A stretch of DNA of 23,509 nt, from the IMG/VR virus record IMGVR_UViG_2713896786_000017; one strand, written 5' to 3'. This DNA comes from a virus. Lineage: Duplodnaviria; Heunggongvirae; Uroviricota; Caudoviricetes. Below, in pieces: positions 7,588-15,809 of this stretch; the first letter of the stretch is position 1; each line of letters starts with the position of its first letter. The notes under the pieces were generated by a model, which was given only the letters and a program-made list of their open reading frames with translations, was not told the DNA's origin and did not search any database. A program made the position numbers and the translations under genes.

Positions 7588-8633
7588 TGAGCAGAAAAAA
7601 TAAAAAAGTGCGCATGAGTTCACGCATTGATCTCGCTGATGCGCTCAGGAAAGAATCATCGCTCAGTGCATTCACATTTGATGGTCCTTATCGCCTGACC
7701 GGGCATGACCTGCTGGACAATATGTACTGTGCTGATAACGGGCGGTGGTATGAAACCCCGGTGGACTGGTACGGTCTGGCAAGAGCAGCCCGGCAAACGT
7801 CCTGGCATCAGTCTGCGCTTTACTTTAAGCGCAATGTATTACTCGGTTGCTACATCCCGCACCCGCTGCTTTCCCGGCAGGATTTCTCGGCGCTGGCGCT
7901 GGACTGGTTTGTGTTCGGTAACGCATTCCTTGAGCTTCGAAGCAATATGCTCGGCGAACCGCTTAAATTACGGCACGCCCTGGCGAAATACATGCGACGC
8001 GGAAGCGATCTTGAATCATGGTGGTATGTGCAGGATGGCAAGGACGCGTTTCAGTTTCGCCCTGGCAAAGTGTGCCACCTGATGAATCCTGACATTAACC
8101 AGGAAATCTACGGCATGCCGGAATATCTCGGCGCATTACTCTCGGCCAGCCTGTCTCATTCGGCGGACATGTTCAGAAAACTGTATTACGACAACGGATC
8201 CCACGCCGGGTGCATCATCTACATCGGTGCAGCGCAGGTAAACCGCGAAAGCATGGACTCCCTGAAAGAAACGCTACAGGGTGCACGTGGTGGTGGTGCG
8301 TTTAAAAACGTGCTCATTCATGCGCCCAACGGTGGCAAAGAGGGGGTGCAAATTTTGCCGTTCCAGCAGATCACCGCAAAAGATGAGTTTATGAATGTTA
8401 AGGCGGCATCCCGTGATGATGTGCTGGCTGCGCACCGCGTTCCGCCGCAACTGATGGGGGCGATGCCGGGCGAAAAAAGTGCGTTTGGTGATGTGGAGAA
8501 GGCCGCGCGGGTTTACGCAATTAACGAGCTGATGCCCGTCATGGAGGCCATGAAGCACATCAATGACTGGCTTGGCGAAGAGGTGATCCGCTTTAACCCT
8601 TACGCACTGTTAGATACCCAGCCCACATCCTGA
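7587..8633 (+). CDS. Q: Portal protein (P2 gpQ-like)
   Basis: 348 aa track ORF, last gene before the cos region as in P2; portal-like central region. Confidence 0.85.
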   Translation: MSRKNKKVRMSSRIDLADALRKESSLSAFTFDGPYRLTGHDLLDNMYCADNGRWYETPVDWYGLARAARQTSWHQSALYFKRNVLLGCYIPHPLLSRQDFSALALDWFVFGNAFLELRSNMLGEPLKLRHALAKYMRRGSDLESWWYVQDGKDAFQFRPGKVCHLMNPDINQEIYGMPEYLGALLSASLSHSADMFRKLYYDNGSHAGCIIYIGAAQVNRESMDSLKETLQGARGGGAFKNVLIHAPNGGKEGVQILPFQQITAKDEFMNVKAASRDDVLAAHRVPPQLMGAMPGEKSAFGDVEKAARVYAINELMPVMEAMKHINDWLGEEVIRFNPYALLDTQPTS

Positions 8634-9056
8634 CGCGCTTCGCTTGTCTGCTGCTTCGCCGGGGCATAAAAAATTTATGCCCCGACTCTCCAGCTCCTGT
8701 ATCAATCAGATAATTTCACGACGCTTTCCTGCTTATTGCCATCATCGACGGTCAGACTCTTACGCAATCCCACTGCGCTGACTGCATGTTCTCGCCGCCT
8801 CAGTGCGATTTTGACGGCCTTATCTGCCACCCCATCAAAGCAAAAGCCCTCACGTCTTTTTCACGCTCAGCGTGAGAAATACAGCCATTCTGTTGTATCT
8901 CTGCGACACCGTTCAGGGGATGCTATTTACCCCCTGAAGCGCGGGCTGTTCCCCCGTCACCTGCGCGTAGAAAAAGCGCGTTTTTTTGTGCACGCACGGA
9001 TCCTTGACGGATCCAGCCGCCATGCGGGCCGGAAGGGTAAAAAGTCGTTCAAAAAA

Positions 9057-10179: not shown

Positions 10180-11139
10180 TTACTCCTTGTCCATTGCGTA
10201 CAGCCCATTAACCAGAGCAAACTGTGGCACCCCGTCCGCGATGAAAGTCGCATTAACTCCGCAGGCTTCGCGGATAGCGGGTGCCACAATCTCCGTCCCA
10301 CCACCGACAACCATCACCCGCCCGTAACCCGAAAAACCCGCCAGCGCGCGGATCACGCGTTGTTTCAGTGTTTCTTCCTTTTCACGAATAACCGCCATCA
10401 GGCTGGCGTAATGCGCGTCATTGTGGATGTGCTGGCGCAGCCAGGCTTCATCATGGCGATGTTCGATAATGGTATTGGCGATGTGGTGACTGGTGCGCAT
10501 ACCGTTAGTGGCCATCACCGACAGTACGGCATCGGCCATCAGAGAAACGCCTACGTGTGGATCGCAAAACACCTGGCTGATACCTGCCAGTTGCCCCTGA
10601 ACCTTTGCCACATCCAGCGTGGTTCCGCCCAAATCCACAATCAGCAGGGATTCAAACGGACTCATGTCAGCCAGTGCCTTAAAGCCAGCCGGAATGGATT
10701 CAGGCATAACCCGTACGTTACGGATAGTGAATGCTTCGCCGTTCTGGTACTCCACCGGGCGCATAACGTTCGCTTTTTTGCGGTTGATATTGGTCATGTC
10801 CGGCTGTGCGTTTGTGTCGAAATACTCGCTCAGTGGCAGGGTGACAACCACATCCACCTCCTGTGGTGTGATGCCTGATTTGACCAGCGCGTGATGAATG
10901 GCAATGACATTCACATCGCTGTATTGGTATTGCGTGTCGGTCGTCTGGACAAAGCGATCGCTGACCGGATCAAAACCATAGCGCACGCCATCAAGCATGT
11001 AGTTCGCGGGCTGCGTGCCACCGAACGGCGCAGACCATTCCGACTTGAAGCTGTTCGGGCTGATGGCGTTGCGGCGTTCGCCGTTCTCAGTCCATGCCAG
11101 CTTGATGTTGGTGGAGCCGTCGTCGATACAAATTTTCAT
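10180..11139 (-). CDS. parM: ParM/StbA-like actin-fold ATPase
   Basis: 319 aa track ORF. MKICIDDGSTNIKLAW, ISPNSFK, YQYSDVNVIAIHHAL, VMPESIPAGF, DLGGTTLDV and VVGGGTEIV parallel plasmid R1 ParM motifs as recalled. Confidence 0.85.
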   Translation of the reverse strand: MKICIDDGSTNIKLAWTENGERRNAISPNSFKSEWSAPFGGTQPANYMLDGVRYGFDPVSDRFVQTTDTQYQYSDVNVIAIHHALVKSGITPQEVDVVVTLPLSEYFDTNAQPDMTNINRKKANVMRPVEYQNGEAFTIRNVRVMPESIPAGFKALADMSPFESLLIVDLGGTTLDVAKVQGQLAGISQVFCDPHVGVSLMADAVLSVMATNGMRTSHHIANTIIEHRHDEAWLRQHIHNDAHYASLMAVIREKEETLKQRVIRALAGFSGYGRVMVVGGGTEIVAPAIREACGVNATFIADGVPQFALVNGLYAMDKE

Positions 11140-11215: not shown

Positions 11216-14056
11216 TCATATATCGCTGCGCGTTTTTTGCTCATTTACGGGATTCGTGAGTCCCGTTTCTGTCTGTTTTTTGTTTCCACTGGTCAGGCCA
11301 CCCCGCAGCAGGTCTGCTTTGCGGCGGGCGCGTTCAGTGGTTTCACTGATTCTCTGTGCGTGCTCTGCGTCGCGGATGGCGCGCAGCATGTCAGAAAGCA
11401 CGGTAACGGGTGTTTTCATGGTGTTCTGGTCCTGCTGAAGTGTGGATGCCAGGCGTGCGGCGGCTTCAGGGTCTGATGCCCCCAGCTGTGTCAGATAGCT
11501 GGCGACCGGGTTATGGCGGATCTCCGTGCTGCTTACGCCATGATTACGGCTCAGGCGCTGCCAGAGCTGCGTGATTCGGCTGTCCGGGCGGGTATCCGGT
11601 TTGCGTACAATTTCAAATCCCTGCGGTGCAATGATGCTGCCGTCAACGTACAGACTGCCGCCCCGTAACAGGTGCTGCATCTGTTGTTCACCGATATGCA
11701 GGCCGAGAGATTCAGCAGACTCCCGCCATTCTTTAGCGAGTAATTCGTGGTTATCAGGCAAAGGCCGCTGCTGTTTGCGGCTCTGTGTCCAGCTCTGCAT
11801 TTCATCACTGCTGTTTTTTGCCTGTTTGTCACGAAGCGAACGCATCAGCGCCCGGCGTTCGTGCCGTTTCAGTGAGCGCATCCATTCATCCACATCAACG
11901 CCGTCAGGGAGCTGCGGCCACGGTGCTGGCCGTTCTTCCGGCTGTTCTGTCCCGTTGTTGTCCGTTTCCTGTACACGGGGACAGTTATTGCCACGAGTCC
12001 AAGGGGCGGCAGGGCCGCCCTGAAGGTCAAAACCATTTTCGCGGGCGCTGTCTTCCGCTTCCGGTTTGCGTCTTACCAGCTTCCAGTTATCCGGATGCGT
12101 GCATACGCGGGAAGACTCCCCAATGAGCGGCGACCAGATCCCGTAAATCTGTACGCTCTGTTCACCGTAATCGTTCAGCTCATCTGCGAGGTCGTAGGCG
12201 GTGCGAATCAGGTAGTCTTTGCGTGGAACAAGTACGCCACCCTGTTTCTCAATGTAGGTGGCAAAACATCCGGCATCAGCGGCAGCGAGTACCGCGTCCA
12301 TTGCGTCATCCTTCAGCCGTTGCGGGCCTTCCGGGTTGCGTGCCATCTGGCTGGCAAGGCGGCGCAGTTCACGCCACACCTGACGGGAGGGGATACCAAA
12401 GAACTGGAACTGGCGGACCCGGTGAAGGCGCGCCCAGCCGATGGCGCGTTCCACGCTCTCGGCCATTGATTTTCCGGTTTCGTGGTCAACGCGTGGCTTG
12501 CCCGTTTTCGGGTCGATGCCATCCACGGCGCGGCTGTCCAGGTTCTTTCCGATGTAGGTGGCGATGTAGCTGGTTGGTGTGCCTTTTGAGCCGTCGACAT
12601 ACTCCACCTTAAAGCGCGGAGTAATATCATTGCCCAGCTCGTGGCGGTCTTCCTGAATGGCAATATCGCGGGTGATGGCCACGATGCTGTCGATTTCTTC
12701 CGGATGAGCAAAGACCATCATATGCCAGTGCACAGTGCCGTCATGGTGAGGCTCCACCGTGCGGATGCCATACCAGCGCAGACCGTCGCGGTTCAGTTTT
12801 TTGCGGACCGCCGCAAAAAACGTGTTAACCAGGTAATCGCTGGAGTCGCGCATGGTGGCCCCGTTCCATTTAGGGTTCGGATGACCGTTCTCCGTTGTTG
12901 CGTGGTATTTTGACGGGCAGGTGACAGTCAGAAACACCGCTCTGTCGCCACGGGCTTCGGCCAGAAGTTCCAGTCCCTTCATGGTGGCCATCATTTCTGC
13001 CTTACGGTGAACCGGGTTACTTACTCCCGCGTAATACACTGTCTCGAGATCAATCGTGAACCCGTCTTCGTTTTCCAGCATGAAACTTTTCAGGAAATCG
13101 CGTGTTTTCTCGCGCTGTGCGCGAAACTCGCTTAACGCGTCCTGGCTCAGATAGGGTGATGTTTTTCTGGAAACCAGACAGGCGGCGCGGAGTTGTTCTT
13201 CTCTCCACTCGCAACGTAACAGCCACAGTTTGCGTTTCCACCATTCCGCACAGGTCAGGCGAAGGATTGCGCCCGGCAGCAGCTCCGTGTCTGGTTCGTT
13301 CCTCCGGTCTTTGTCTGTTGTCAGTGCGTCATAATGTGGAGGCATGGCGTGCAGGTGTAACGCCATGCGGGCCAGCATCTGATACGTCTTCAGCGTTACA
13401 TCCATGGTCAGCTCGCCATCGGTCGCGCCAAAGCCATCGCAGAGTTTTTCGAAGGTGCTGCTGAACATCGCCGCCGTCATGGTGGCCAGCGTCTGTATCT
13501 GGTGTTTGTTGAGCTGCGGCAGGTAAAGCAAATCGTCCAGGCGTTCGCGTCCGGCAAGGGAGCGATAACCAGGTGTCAGCCAGCGCCCGTCAGTGCGATC
13601 CAGACGTTCGAATATTTTGCGCAGGGTTCCGCGTGCATAGCGTTCCGCCTGCCAGCTCTTTTTGCCTTTCTGACGATCGGCTTCCTGCTTCTTGCGCAGG
13701 AAAGAGAGGTGGCGGCTCAGAGGTTCTCGCAGATAAACGGGAAGCGCCTTCAGTGTGGCAAAGGCACGGGCTACCGGGTCTTGTTCTGTTGCCCGGCGCT
13801 TACTGATGATGCTCTGTGCCAGCTTCTCACGCTGTCCGGCTTCCTCAAGGGATGCCATGAGTTTTTTACCCATGGCGGATTGTGCGAAAAAGGCTTCTTT
13901 CTTCGCTTCCTGTTCTTCCTGTGCCCTTTTGTCCGCCTCAAGGTAGTAACGGATGGCGCGTTGCAGGTCGGTTTCAGTTTCCTGCCTGTGCTCCGTAAAT
14001 CTGGCCGGATCAATAGCTGGTCGTGGTTCATTCCAGCTCCATGCAAACGCACTCAT
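11216..14056 (-). CDS. A: Rolling-circle replication initiation protein (P2 gpA-like HUH endonuclease)
   Basis: Track ORF 11216..14083 (955 aa). HUH motif in GTVHWHMMVFAHPEE and paired tyrosines in TSYIATYIGKNL. The ATG at 14056 overlaps the upstream stop (ATGA) and is the likelier start; 14083 is a GTG. Confidence 0.85.
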   Translation of the reverse strand: MSAFAWSWNEPRPAIDPARFTEHRQETETDLQRAIRYYLEADKRAQEEQEAKKEAFFAQSAMGKKLMASLEEAGQREKLAQSIISKRRATEQDPVARAFATLKALPVYLREPLSRHLSFLRKKQEADRQKGKKSWQAERYARGTLRKIFERLDRTDGRWLTPGYRSLAGRERLDDLLYLPQLNKHQIQTLATMTAAMFSSTFEKLCDGFGATDGELTMDVTLKTYQMLARMALHLHAMPPHYDALTTDKDRRNEPDTELLPGAILRLTCAEWWKRKLWLLRCEWREEQLRAACLVSRKTSPYLSQDALSEFRAQREKTRDFLKSFMLENEDGFTIDLETVYYAGVSNPVHRKAEMMATMKGLELLAEARGDRAVFLTVTCPSKYHATTENGHPNPKWNGATMRDSSDYLVNTFFAAVRKKLNRDGLRWYGIRTVEPHHDGTVHWHMMVFAHPEEIDSIVAITRDIAIQEDRHELGNDITPRFKVEYVDGSKGTPTSYIATYIGKNLDSRAVDGIDPKTGKPRVDHETGKSMAESVERAIGWARLHRVRQFQFFGIPSRQVWRELRRLASQMARNPEGPQRLKDDAMDAVLAAADAGCFATYIEKQGGVLVPRKDYLIRTAYDLADELNDYGEQSVQIYGIWSPLIGESSRVCTHPDNWKLVRRKPEAEDSARENGFDLQGGPAAPWTRGNNCPRVQETDNNGTEQPEERPAPWPQLPDGVDVDEWMRSLKRHERRALMRSLRDKQAKNSSDEMQSWTQSRKQQRPLPDNHELLAKEWRESAESLGLHIGEQQMQHLLRGGSLYVDGSIIAPQGFEIVRKPDTRPDSRITQLWQRLSRNHGVSSTEIRHNPVASYLTQLGASDPEAAARLASTLQQDQNTMKTPVTVLSDMLRAIRDAEHAQRISETTERARRKADLLRGGLTSGNKKQTETGLTNPVNEQKTRSDI

Positions 14057-14442
14057 GGCTGGTATCCCGTCACGCGCTGCCACTCCTGCGAGAAGAGGGC
14101 GGAAAGGCGGTTAAATTCAGCGGTGTATTCACTCAGCGAGGCACACCCGCCAGCAGTGCGATGCGCCAGCATTGCTGCAAATACGGAGGCCGGGGAGTCG
14201 TAATACGCCAGCAGTGATTCGCCGTGCGGTGTCAGGCAGTGCAACGCCAGTCCGTGTGGTGTGAAGTCCACGCGGTAGCAGTCGTCTACTGTGAAATAAA
14301 GGGTGTCTGCATTCTCCGGTTTTGTGGTGCGTGCTCTGTTGTCACGACCACGGATGTAGAGATCAAATAACCCCTGAAGAACGGGAGCCAGACGGGTGTC
14401 CTGTGTGCGCACCCATCTTGTGAAGTCATGAGCGTCAATCAT
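14053..14442 (-). CDS. Hypothetical early protein (129 aa) directly upstream of and coupled to gene A
   Basis: Track ORF with ATG start; position is that of the small orfs preceding A in P2-like phages. Confidence 0.5.
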   Translation of the reverse strand: MIDAHDFTRWVRTQDTRLAPVLQGLFDLYIRGRDNRARTTKPENADTLYFTVDDCYRVDFTPHGLALHCLTPHGESLLAYYDSPASVFAAMLAHRTAGGCASLSEYTAEFNRLSALFSQEWQRVTGYQP

Positions 14443-14514
14443 GCTGCAATTCTCTTTACTACAGATGTGCGAAGGCCTCCCGCCGCAAGGTGCAGGAAAG
14501 GCCCGGAACAGGAA

Positions 14515-14745
14515 TTAATGGAGTTTGTTTTGCTGCTGGATGAGCTGTTGAAGCTCGTGCAGATCATCCGCCAGATAGCTGAAAACAGAGGCGGAATAAA
14601 TGTTTGATAGTGCGTGGCTGCGCTCATGCAGCATATTGATGTGCATGATTTGCGCGACGCGTGATGCGCGGTAAAGTCTGCGGTTGATTTCAGTCTGGAT
14701 GTGACGACGCGCAGCGTATGCGCGCTGTTGTTTGCGGTTTGCCAT
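14515..14745 (-). CDS. Hypothetical small basic protein (76 aa)
   Basis: Track ORF with ACGAGG 8 nt upstream of the ATG; arginine-rich helical N-terminus. An overlapping 205 aa ORF in another frame was rejected. Confidence 0.4.
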   Translation of the reverse strand: MANRKQQRAYAARRHIQTEINRRLYRASRVAQIMHINMLHERSHALSNIYSASVFSYLADDLHELQQLIQQQNKLH

Positions 14746-15067
14746 GGTGTGGCCTCGTGTATAGTAAGTTTTGAAAACTCACCATCCAGAGGTGGAAAAC
14801 TCGGGGTGGTGAGACGTACAGGGTTTCCACAACCGGCTATACACGAACCCGGCCCGACCAAAGTCGGCCCCATACGCCCCACCATAATTCGTGTGCGAAA
14901 AAGACGTGGCGATGCGGTACGCACAAAAAAACCGCTGGCGCGGTTGTGCGCGTGTATAGTCAGCGGGGTGGAAATCCCGGCACCCGTTTTATGAGGTGCA
15001 GCGGAAATGTAACCTGACTGATTGCGGCATGGCAAGCGGTTTTTTTGTGTGTGCATGTTCTGGTTTC

Positions 15068-15367
15068 TTACTGGTTCAGAAAAAAATCAAAAACCTTGTC
15101 AATGCGTTGCAGCAGCTCTTGCTGTATTGCTTCCGGTGTTTCCGGTTCGCCTGGCGCCTTCAACGTCGCGCAGAAATCAGCGATTTCATGATGGAGCGTC
15201 AGGCGAATGGCAGGAGCCGTGGTTCTGGCGTGCTCCAGCTCATCCAGCAGTGCCAGCACGGCAGACGGCGAGAGCATTGCGCGAAATGCCAGTAATTTTT
15301 GAGGCGTTGCCATTCGTTGCAGGGCAAATGCCAGTTCGCGTAGCTTCTGGTGGTTGATGGTGCTCAT
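15068..15367 (-). CDS. Hypothetical early protein (99 aa)
   Basis: Track ORF; ATGA overlap with the upstream gene. Confidence 0.5.
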   Translation of the reverse strand: MSTINHQKLRELAFALQRMATPQKLLAFRAMLSPSAVLALLDELEHARTTAPAIRLTLHHEIADFCATLKAPGEPETPEAIQQELLQRIDKVFDFFLNQ

Positions 15368-15609
15368 GCTCTGGCTTCCTTCAGTAGCTGGTTAAACATG
15401 TGAGTAAGTGGGTTGCCACACCCGAACGGCATCGGGTTTACCAGGTAAGAGAACCGACCGCCTGTTTTGCGTTCTTCTCTGATGACTAAGCCGTCGCGCC
15501 AGAGTCGGCGTAACTCCGAATTAATGGCTGTGGTTGGGGTATTCAGTGCTGTGGCGATTTCGCTACCGCTACAACCCGGATTGGCGGCGATGTAGTCCAG
15601 AATGGTCAT
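15364..15609 (-). CDS. Putative winged-helix DNA-binding protein (81 aa)
   Basis: MTILDYIAANPGCSGSEIATALNTPTTAINSELRRLWRDGLVIREER has the look of a winged HTH; translationally coupled on both sides. Confidence 0.45.
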   Translation of the reverse strand: MTILDYIAANPGCSGSEIATALNTPTTAINSELRRLWRDGLVIREERKTGGRFSYLVNPMPFGCGNPLTHMFNQLLKEARA

Positions 15610-15809
15610 TTGCGTGACTCCTGTACCTGTCTGATAAGATTTACCTGCACCACGTTGGTGGCGCAGAAGTAAGTGTCGTCAGTGAGATAAATGTGATGCG
15701 CGTCAGGTTGCGAACGGTGACGGTCGAGCGTTTTAATCAGCCGTTCGTCAATTTCGTATTCACGCCCTCTGGAGGTGAAACGAATGACGGAAAAACGCTT
15801 AATTGCCAT
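15606..15809 (-). CDS. Hypothetical early protein (about 67 aa)
   Basis: Internal ATG (MAIKRFSVIRF...) of track ORF 15606..15869 chosen to limit overlap with the upstream gene; start uncertain. Confidence 0.4.
   Translation of the reverse strand: MAIKRFSVIRFTSRGREYEIDERLIKTLDRHRSQPDAHHIYLTDDTYFCATNVVQVNLIRQVQESRK

Follow-up and report, generated by a model that had tools for sequence, protein, structure and literature searches.

The early operon of the prophage analyzed here, IMG/VR virus record IMGVR_UViG_2713896786_000017 (23,509 nucleotides; this whole stretch is referred to below as the window), contains a gap at positions 14746-15067 between the minus-strand genes at 15068-15367 and 14515-14745, within which RefSeq annotates nothing in the identical Escherichia coli O104:H4 genomes. 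We propose, with a probability of about 0.85, that this segment constitutes a secondary immunity cassette operating through RNA, of the type represented by P1 immI, the P4 immunity region and the N15 anti-immunity region, and that, with its own predicted promoter and matching target sites, it most likely keeps the anti-repressor-like gene and the replication genes of the O104:H4 prophage switched off. The observations which carry this reading are directly established, namely membership of known RNA families, the folds, sequence complementarity accompanied by co-variation, and the geometry of the elements with respect to the ribosome-binding site and the promoter. The window represents a P88-like prophage (Xuanwuvirus, P2 family), its nearest phage relatives being P88 and kin, and is 100% identical to a prophage found in E. 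coli O104:H4 outbreak genomes. All cassette elements lie on the minus strand, which is also that of the early operon.

Two small RNAs and their target sites

The initial annotation of the window, made from its letters and a list of open reading frames (ORFs), had described the segment as a structured noncoding island that might be an internal promoter or operator, a small RNA gene or another cis element, and had proposed a covariance search. When run against Rfam, this search returned two families above their gathering scores, corresponding to a leader RNA resembling isrK and an antisense RNA of the C4/CI type (Table 1), and the segment thus harbors two small-RNA genes. The isrK-like RNA, which possesses two 5' hairpins and is the equivalent of P4 seqA and of the P1 a1b1 element, has helices that are supported in 21 sequences; the isrK of Gifsy-1 also matches RF03163 (c4-a1b1), described by Rfam as the "a1, b1 targets of C4 antisense RNA." The three helices of C4 (27 pairs) are 99.7 to 100% paired in 21 phages, compared with 37 to 48% for slid controls, and no shuffled or slid control comes close. 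Fourteen of these pairs have changed on both sides, and the compensatory changes for which the initial annotation had advised aligning related prophages are, therefore, present in the C4 helices, as they are in the recognition pairs described below.

The repeats to which the initial annotation drew attention are the recognition code of these RNA-RNA pairing elements, the a' and b' elements of C4 being complementary both to the b1/a1 pair in isrK and to the b2/a2 pair which follows C4. The motif GTGTATAG, reported to occur three times, does exist as two plus-strand copies (14757-14764 and 14952-14959) and one inverted copy, although the latter is located at 14837-14844 and not near 14848; these are its only occurrences in the 23.5-kb window, all of them within the segment, against a chance expectation of 0.23, and 0 of 100 shuffles reached three. 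The two plus-strand copies of GGTGGAAA (14791-14798 and 14967-14974) were likewise confirmed, while the inverted copy attributed to it is only the 7-mer GTGGAAA (14824-14830), which is enriched window-wide (12 matches versus 3.6 expected). A hairpin credited with a perfect 8-bp stem corresponds to C4 hairpin 1, but its true plus-strand sequence is ggcccgac-caaa-gtcggccc, giving a stem of five perfect pairs, or of seven pairs out of eight with one C.C mismatch; a second GC-rich hairpin noted at the same time can be recognized as the 17-bp basal stem of C4 or as the isrK hairpins.

In the downstream target region, the alternative hairpin that presents b2 is supported across 21 sequences at its seven proximal pairs, of which five have changed on both sides. 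Element a2 spans positions -20 to -10 of the epsilon-like gene and covers the first two bases of its Shine-Dalgarno sequence. This positioning of the downstream target next to a ribosome-binding site is common to all 17 loci extracted, and Rfam identified the isrK-C4 tandem in every one of the 17 homologous loci, which come from P88, a Citrobacter relative, various Shiga toxin (Stx) and lambdoid phages, N15, Gifsy-1, P4 and a Hafnia phage.

The internal promoter envisaged by the initial annotation is also predicted, in the form of a sigma-70 site (TTGCCA-18-TACATT), the -10 element of which ends 6 nucleotides before the 5' end of isrK, and which was the sole promoter-like site found in a scan of positions 14400-15700. 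A -35/-10 pair with the -10 element ending exactly 6 nucleotides before isrK nucleotide 1 was found in 17 of 17 homologous loci, P4 and Gifsy-1 included; the P4 site with matching geometry is PLE. No LexA box was seen at the internal promoter upon inspection by eye. PisrK of Gifsy-1 has been shown experimentally to be a promoter that drives the downstream genes (PMC4825925). Between P88-like phages with differing upstream genes, homology begins at approximately 15049, just upstream of the isrK promoter, and the cassette, therefore, behaves as a mosaic unit.

Table 1. Features of the segment and its surroundings (window coordinates unless a locus is named), followed by coding sequences of other elements that match Pfam PF10554
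Feature	Position	Strand	Basis or remark
isrK-like leader small RNA	14925-14999 (read 14999 to 14925)	-	Rfam RF01394, 63.5 bits versus gathering score 50, model positions 1-77 of 77
Target copy b1	14968-14974	-	Loop of isrK hairpin 2
Target copy a1	14951-14959	-	Just 3' of isrK hairpin 2
Intrinsic terminator of isrK	Stem 14930-14945 plus U7	-	Terminator scan; 6-bp stem
Predicted sigma-70 promoter of isrK	15035 to 15006	-	-35 TTGCCA, 18-nucleotide spacer, -10 TACATT; predicted start 14999
Segment X (ACACACAAAAAAACCGCUUGC)	15032-15052 (read 15052 to 15032)	-	Upstream of isrK start; inverted repeat with Y
Y (3' half of isrK terminator plus U-tract)	14919-14939	-	Complement of X
C4/CI-type antisense RNA	14802-14889 (read 14889 to 14802)	-	Rfam RF01695, 76.5 bits versus gathering score 45, model positions 1-87 of 87
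C4 basal stem, 17 bp	14868-14884 with 14807-14823	-	C4 fold
C4 hairpin 1	14854-14867	-	C4 fold
C4 hairpin 2	14832-14853	-	C4 fold; loop carries a'
a' (CGUGUAUAG)	14837-14845	-	Single-stranded, hairpin 2 loop
b' (GUGGAAA)	14824-14830	-	Single-stranded, 3' junction
Downstream target region (like P4 seqC, P1 a2b2)	14753-14813	-	Direct sequence reading
b2 (UUUCCAC)	14792-14798	-	8-nucleotide loop of alternative hairpin
Alternative hairpin	14800-14813 (3' strand of C4 basal stem) with 14778-14791	-	Pairing and co-variation
a2 (CUAUACACG(A))	14755-14764	-	Overlaps Shine-Dalgarno sequence of 76-amino-acid gene
Shine-Dalgarno sequence GAGG	14753-14756	-	7 nucleotides before AUG at 14745
148-codon open frame	14439-14885	-	Conserved AUG in 5' strand of C4; +1 frame over epsilon-like gene
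76-amino-acid epsilon-like gene	14515-14745	-	Bounds gap downstream
ORF129	14053-14442	-	ORF list
Replication initiator A	11216-14083	-	Pfam Phage_GPA, 434 bits
Ead-like gene	15068-15367	-	Bounds gap upstream
MarR-type winged-helix gene	15364-15609	-	Two genes upstream of segment; Pfam
cox	Early operon, upstream part	-	ORF list, Pfam, RefSeq
P4 "cI protein" ORF	L019 8168-8584		PF10554 match over RNA locus, 59.7 bits
N15 "gene 32"	L015 1306-1596		PF10554 match over RNA locus
Hafnia "Ash family protein"	L018 1108-1791		PF10554 match over RNA locus
N-terminal extension of lambdoid "antirepressor" coding sequence	L010 895-2046		PF10554 match over RNA locus

Co-variation of the recognition elements

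Among seven P88-like sequences which are more than 90% identical outside the recognition blocks, variable sites crowd into the six recognition blocks themselves (45/86 columns versus 37/222; Fisher P = 1e-9), and yet a1:a', b1:b', a':a2 and b':b2 are paired in 100% of cells. Changes on both sides were observed in 10 of 16 to 17 pairs for each target copy, with slid controls at 25 to 52%; for the downstream copy (a':a2 and b':b2) the corresponding values are 10 of 17 pairs and 40 to 52%.

A larger set of 81 P88-like modules was composed of 75 from the best 80 of 99 IMG/VR stretches matching the pattern, the window, and five previously fetched loci. Twelve a' types and five b' types occur in 22 combinations among these modules, both target copies changing in step. 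The combination carried by the window is rare (3 of 81 modules), its a' sequence being CGUGUAUAG as opposed to CUGUAGUUG in the P88 type. Full pairing of a1:a' was found in 80 modules, 69 of which are perfect Watson-Crick matches and 11 of which include G-U pairs, with two mismatches in the remaining module and a single mismatch in none. For a':a2, 67 modules are fully paired (63 perfectly and 4 with G-U pairs), 13 contain one mismatch and 1 contains two. The b elements pair by Watson-Crick matches throughout, no G-U pair being present in either copy: b1:b' is perfect in 80 modules and has one mismatch in the other, with none having two, while b':b2 is perfect in all 81. The energy of the a' duplex amounts to -18 to -22 kcal/mol for cognate pairs, compared to -9 to -15 kcal/mol for non-cognate pairs. 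Such behavior is consistent with a code that specifies RNA-RNA recognition, of the kind known from P1/P7 heteroimmunity (reviewed in PMC12197685), and is unlike that of a protein operator.

Among the IMG/VR contigs, L098 combines an a' loop of the P88 type with a1 and a2 targets of the Citrobacter type, resulting in two mismatches, and L023 possesses a b1 that does not match its own b'. These contigs may represent recombinants escaping their own RNA immunity, assembly chimeras, or decaying copies.

The proposed switch and competing explanations

The first gene under the proposed control is that of the 76-amino-acid protein, a relative of P4 epsilon with a putative anti-repressor-like ("derepression") function. 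Its product matches Pfam PF25738 (Derepression) with an E value of 7.7e-8, a family to which P4 epsilon itself scores 170 bits, and shares 33% identity with P4 epsilon over 51 amino acids (E value of 4e-9). The gene displays 48 synonymous and 55 nonsynonymous changes in its own frame versus 8 and 93, respectively, in the +1 frame. Neither the epsilon-like protein nor ORF129 nor the ORFs overlapping the RNAs had a significant match in NCBIfam, and in PHROGs the real genes match only families of unknown function; a search of genome contigs with the 76-amino-acid protein yielded three loci only. The downstream genes are on the same strand as the cassette, with no promoter predicted between them within the scanned region, and, by analogy with the characterized systems, ORF129 and gene A are likely to fall under the same control through polarity.

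It is proposed that transcription from the internal promoter starts at approximately 14999 and that most transcripts would stop at the intrinsic terminator, yielding an IsrK-like RNA of about 75 nucleotides. Read-through transcripts would contain the C4-like RNA, which, by homology, would be excised as a stable antisense RNA, C4-type RNA being processed by RNase P at its 5' end in P1 and P4. The excised RNA would expose a' in a hairpin loop and b' at a junction, and both would pair with a2 and b2 just downstream, such that a':a2 pairing over the Shine-Dalgarno sequence would block 30S binding at the epsilon-like gene. In P1, P4 and N15, C4 pairs with a2/b2 and blocks translation of the first gene, and premature Rho-dependent termination follows; on the P1/P4 analogy, the untranslated RNA would terminate prematurely here as well, leaving the epsilon-like gene, ORF129 and A off in the lysogen, and the same silencing would be imposed on a superinfecting phage of like RNA specificity. 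In cis, b1/a1 of IsrK would pair with the C4 elements and lock the leader in an inactive fold, while in trans, free IsrK could titrate C4 by serving as its decoy, which has been demonstrated for the homologous b1:b' pairs in Gifsy-1. The steps from the processing of C4 through the block of translation to polarity by Rho, and likewise the biological role assigned to the epsilon-like protein, are inferred.

The local layout mirrors that of P4, in which the same order is observed, i.e., promoter, isrK/seqA-like leader with terminator, C4-family RNA, target by the ribosome-binding site, epsilon-family gene and replication genes, and in which the promoter geometry is identical to that of the window. 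The P4 immunity region consists of PLE, seqA, CI RNA (seqB) and seqC, followed by epsilon, orf151 and alpha, and the Rfam matches in P4 are located upstream of epsilon at 8420-8507 (C4) and 8615-8692 (isrK), which presumably represent the locus of CI RNA and the seqA region, respectively. The two systems differ in that the window element is a complete P2-family phage of the helper type whereas P4 is a satellite, in that the window replication gene encodes a P2-type A nickase whereas that of P4 encodes the alpha primase, and in that the spacer between the two RNAs measures 35 nucleotides in the window versus 107 in P4. Furthermore, no kil/eta-like ORF starts in the leader of the window, ORF129 bears no similarity to P4 orf151, and the window cassette, which carries the additional segment X, is situated within an operon driven by an upstream early promoter.

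The immI region of P1/P7, whose c4 acts through a'/b' against a1b1 and a2b2 to control icd and ant, is the founding member of the Rfam C4 family. Compared by description, it is similar in that its two recognition elements have partners in a target pair upstream and in another downstream, the latter over the ribosome-binding site, and it differs in that its targets are icd and then the Ant anti-repressor, as opposed to an epsilon-like gene and then replication genes. Loop changes make P1 and P7 heteroimmune (reviewed in PMC12197685), a principle that recurs in the P88-like family, with 12 x 5 loop types. In N15, both blastn and Rfam identify the same tandem over the annotated "cA / gene 32" of immB, with an anti-repressor downstream, the CA RNA controlling the anti-repressor operon; unlike the window element, N15 is a linear plasmid-prophage with a different anti-repressor and unrelated a'/b' sequences.

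The isrK-orf45-anrP region of Salmonella Gifsy-1 shares with the window the isrK and C4 tandem, two in-frame AUGs at the start of C4, and the promoter geometry. IsrK has been recognized as a structural homologue of P4 seqA, and the pairs G28-C162 and G31-C159, which were validated by compensatory mutation, hold the long transcript translationally silent until relieved by IsrK in trans (PMC4825925). In our alignment, these two pairs map onto b1:b'. A stable processed RNA, STnc1160, is produced from the region downstream of isrK, and a C4-like antisense role has been discussed only (PMC4825925). Gifsy-1 differs in being lambdoid, in having a Rha/Ant-type anti-repressor gene downstream, in the length of orf45 (45 codons versus 148 for the corresponding frame of the window), and in that the published model is one of IsrK activation in trans.

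Several points weigh against repression by the cassette as outlined above. The b' pairing comprises just 7 bp (approximately -9 kcal/mol), and the transcription start, terminator efficiency and C4 processing at this locus are sequence-based predictions. A small epsilon-like protein is the putative target, in place of a classical Ant/Rha anti-repressor. It is odd for the essential replication gene of a phage to be preceded by both an antisense block and an intrinsic terminator; lytic growth requires a bypass, for which the pairing of segments X and Y (Table 1) constitutes only a candidate proposal. Finally, the chief documented effect of IsrK in Gifsy-1 is activation, not repression (PMC4825925), and given this finding the balance of repression and activation could be different here.

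Segments X and Y are complementary at 19 of 21 positions, a value reached by 0 of 300 shuffles (maximum, 17). In the predicted fold of 15067 to 14912 (-55.9 kcal/mol; z, -5.3), X is base-paired to the terminator region at the expense of the terminator hairpin; in the fold from the predicted start, and thus without X, the two isrK hairpins and the terminator form. X is located upstream of the isrK start and would, therefore, be carried only by transcripts from the upstream early promoter, Pe. We suggest, at somewhat less than even odds, that X is a promoter-selective antiterminator which lets only early-promoter transcripts read through the isrK terminator: Pe transcripts carrying X would continue to gene A, whereas those from the constitutive internal promoter would stop and make the regulator. 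X would then account for the way in which early-promoter transcripts reach gene A. The segment is conserved as the left edge of the cassette beside at least three different upstream flanks, and it is at X that P88-like homology starts; it was not seen in the 70 nucleotides upstream of isrK in lambdoid, N15 or P4 loci, and the terminator scan did not support a plus-strand terminator at this position. Because X and Y are both nearly invariant in approximately 150 modules, no co-variation signal is obtainable for X:Y, and a viral-contig search with the epsilon-like protein profile returned only relatives of at least 91% identity, with no diverged X/Y sequences. Caution is advisable in that X shares positions with the -35 region and Y with the terminator, and the conservation of each may have a separate cause. 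As isolated anecdotes, one A6:U6 co-deletion and one pair-improving change were noted in X:Y.

Activator logic of the Gifsy-1 type may instead dominate, in which case the module would serve chiefly as a switch that induces the epsilon-like protein and A rather than as an immunity repressor; we consider this possible but doubtful. According to this explanation, b1:b' pairing in cis would silence the long transcript, the short IsrK RNA from the same promoter would open it in trans, and ribosomes from the ORF beginning at the C4 AUG would then be carried downstream by coupling. The mechanism has been demonstrated experimentally in Gifsy-1 (PMC4825925), and the homologous pairs as well as the two AUGs 12 nucleotides apart are conserved. 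The window possesses a 148-codon frame whose AUG is homologous in position to that of Gifsy-1 orf45, which is followed after 12 nucleotides by a second AUG, as in orf45, and whose stop overlaps the ORF129 start as ATGA; in all 59 of the 59 distinct P88-like sequences, the frame extends for 142 codons or more without a stop, and as a rule it terminates at or close to the start codon that follows, most often as ATGA. Such a frame, from the C4 AUG to the next gene start, might carry ribosomes across the epsilon-like gene. On the other hand, no Shine-Dalgarno sequence precedes the C4 AUG in the window, the frame is without protein-level constraint, and in Escherichia albertii it is truncated to 64 codons by a 1-nucleotide deletion. 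The depletion of stops is weak (5 stop-creating variants observed versus 11.3 expected), and the chance of a stop-free +1 frame in the epsilon-like gene is approximately 0.1; tests for selection on a long open frame are, accordingly, weakly positive, and the frame may be a conduit for ribosome coupling or may have arisen by chance. Furthermore, the epsilon-like gene has its own Shine-Dalgarno sequence abutted by a2, which fits direct antisense occlusion. The activator and repressor logics are compatible and not mutually exclusive. We tentatively view the X antiterminator, the code of at least 12 a' by 5 b' types reassorting between prophages that are otherwise nearly identical, and a long frame that is possibly kept open as additions made by the P88-like phages, a combination which seems rather unlikely to hold in full; such additions are not described for P1, P4, N15 or Gifsy-1.

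The initial annotation had further considered an operator for the winged-helix protein or for the repressor C, such that the GTGTATAG/GGTGGAAA repeats would belong to a protein-bound DNA operator/promoter region. While a promoter is indeed predicted in the segment and a MarR-type winged-helix gene lies two genes upstream, this explanation is highly improbable. Across phages, the repeats co-vary as Watson-Crick RNA partners, unlike conserved protein-binding sites: they vary freely between near-identical phages yet keep their reverse-complement relation to the C4 loops, a relation that a protein operator would not impose. In addition, they are located 35 to 240 nucleotides downstream of the promoter, within the transcribed RNAs, and the modules are also present in lambdoid phages, N15 and P4, where the fetched loci lack a MarR-type neighbor.

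Least probable of all, to the point of near-negligible likelihood, is that the segment encodes an "Ash family protein," as annotated in related records, with the repeats being incidental. The existence of a conserved coding frame had to be checked because Pfam Phage_ASH (PF10554) matches the translation of the region: a 205-amino-acid minus-strand ORF (14439-15056) aligns to it with an E value of 9.5e-5 and a score of 23.2 bits, below the gathering score of 26, no stop interrupts its frame within the module in 16 of 21 phages, and several records annotate coding sequences over it. The statement of the initial annotation that the segment contains no credible ORF was nonetheless upheld, even though one frame is physically open, since none of the three minus-strand frames shows a synonymous excess (25/105, 22/113 and 35/101 synonymous/nonsynonymous changes in module frames f0, f1 and f2, respectively, among P88-like sequences), and the substitution pattern thus reveals no frame under coding constraint. 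The variable positions cluster in blocks which co-vary as base pairs. C4 lengths of 84, 85, 87 and 88 nucleotides and variable isrK-C4 offsets break the common frame in TL-2011c, F039, PhiR12_2 and Gifsy-1, and stop codons interrupt the ASH frame in four phages (TL-2011c, F039, N15 and Gifsy-1). The residues matched by ASH correspond to minus-strand nucleotides 14748-15011, i.e., isrK, C4 and targets, and in every case tested the profile aligned to RNA coordinates (see Table 1 for examples). Based on the substitution pattern, the broken frame and a profile that aligns to the RNA locus, the protein-coding reading was rejected.

The true P4 epsilon matches PF25738 only and not PF10554, and the P4 "cI" and N15 "cA" proteins have historically been replaced by RNAs. 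PF10554 itself looks like a family of translated RNA, and the long start sites of lambdoid antirepressor genes are probably mis-called. A large survey of P4-like satellites employed PF10554 as a marker for "epsilon (Ash)" (PMC8628076); this marker appears to detect the isrK-C4 RNA locus and not the protein.

Occurrence and biological significance

The P88-like form of the cassette is widespread, a 1-kb region being present at 80% identity or more in 1,410 of 5,426 complete E. coli genomes (about a quarter), while the 255-nucleotide module is detectable by blastn in 2,049 of these 5,426 genomes, with up to five copies per genome. In the 25 genomes listed, RefSeq leaves the matched stretch unannotated, and in other records the region bears the label of a pseudo "ash" protein. 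The O104:H4 chromosome carries three isrK-C4 modules, including that of the Stx2a prophage (NC_018658.1, 3302863-3303176), which matches the module of TL-2011c at 100% identity and whose a'/b' elements differ from those of the window; the presence of three modules fits co-resident heteroimmune cassettes. A P88-like segment was also encountered in a contig labelled as a Firmicute (L021; NZ_JBQPOM010000071.1, "Vagococcus sp."), with an epsilon-like protein 95% identical and flanking DNA 91% identical to the window, which is probably due to contamination or a mislabelled assembly.

Some further observations concern neighboring regions. In TL-2011c (L008), positions 596-679 on the minus strand match Rfam sRNA-Xcc1 (79.6 bits) downstream of a Rha-type gene and are unrelated to the cassette. 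The 72-nucleotide gap between the epsilon-like gene and ORF129 in the window contains, at 14468-14510 on the minus strand, a GC-rich hairpin (GGGCCUUUCCUGCA...GCGGCGGGAGGCC) without a U-tract and with a fold z of only -2.25; by eye, a diverged variant (e.g., L048, GAAGCCAUCCCGC...GCGGGAGGCUUC) seems to retain pairing via changes on both sides, and the hairpin could be a processing or pause site. Downstream of gene A, positions 10180-11139 (minus strand) and the adjacent ORF correspond in RefSeq to a ParM plasmid-segregation protein and a "plasmid partitioning/stability family protein"; the location of these genes right behind the replication gene of a P2-family prophage hints at a plasmid-like maintenance option.

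No paper on this RNA cassette in P88, Xuanwuvirus or P88-like phages was found in the searchable literature, and no description of a P88-like cassette was found in the literature on P2-like phages, c4/immI or P4 epsilon/immunity. For CI RNA/seqA/seqC, the Gifsy-1 paper alone was relevant, and neither isrK nor C4 is mentioned by Tree et al. (2014). The RNA families are curated and the mechanism has long been known from P1, P4 and N15; noteworthy here are the P2-family setting, the wide range of specificity types, the putative antiterminator and the artefact in annotation.

Descriptions of P2-family phages usually feature one protein repressor, C, which in this prophage is encoded at 17593-17904. 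An RNA immunity layer positioned before anti-repressor-like and replication genes would add a second determinant of superinfection immunity, and would also create a possible induction route. The 12 x 5 loop types constitute a natural series on how short kissing interactions set specificity, and the combination of an epsilon homologue with a CI-like RNA in a helper-type phage bears on the exchange of regulatory modules between P4-like satellites and their helpers.

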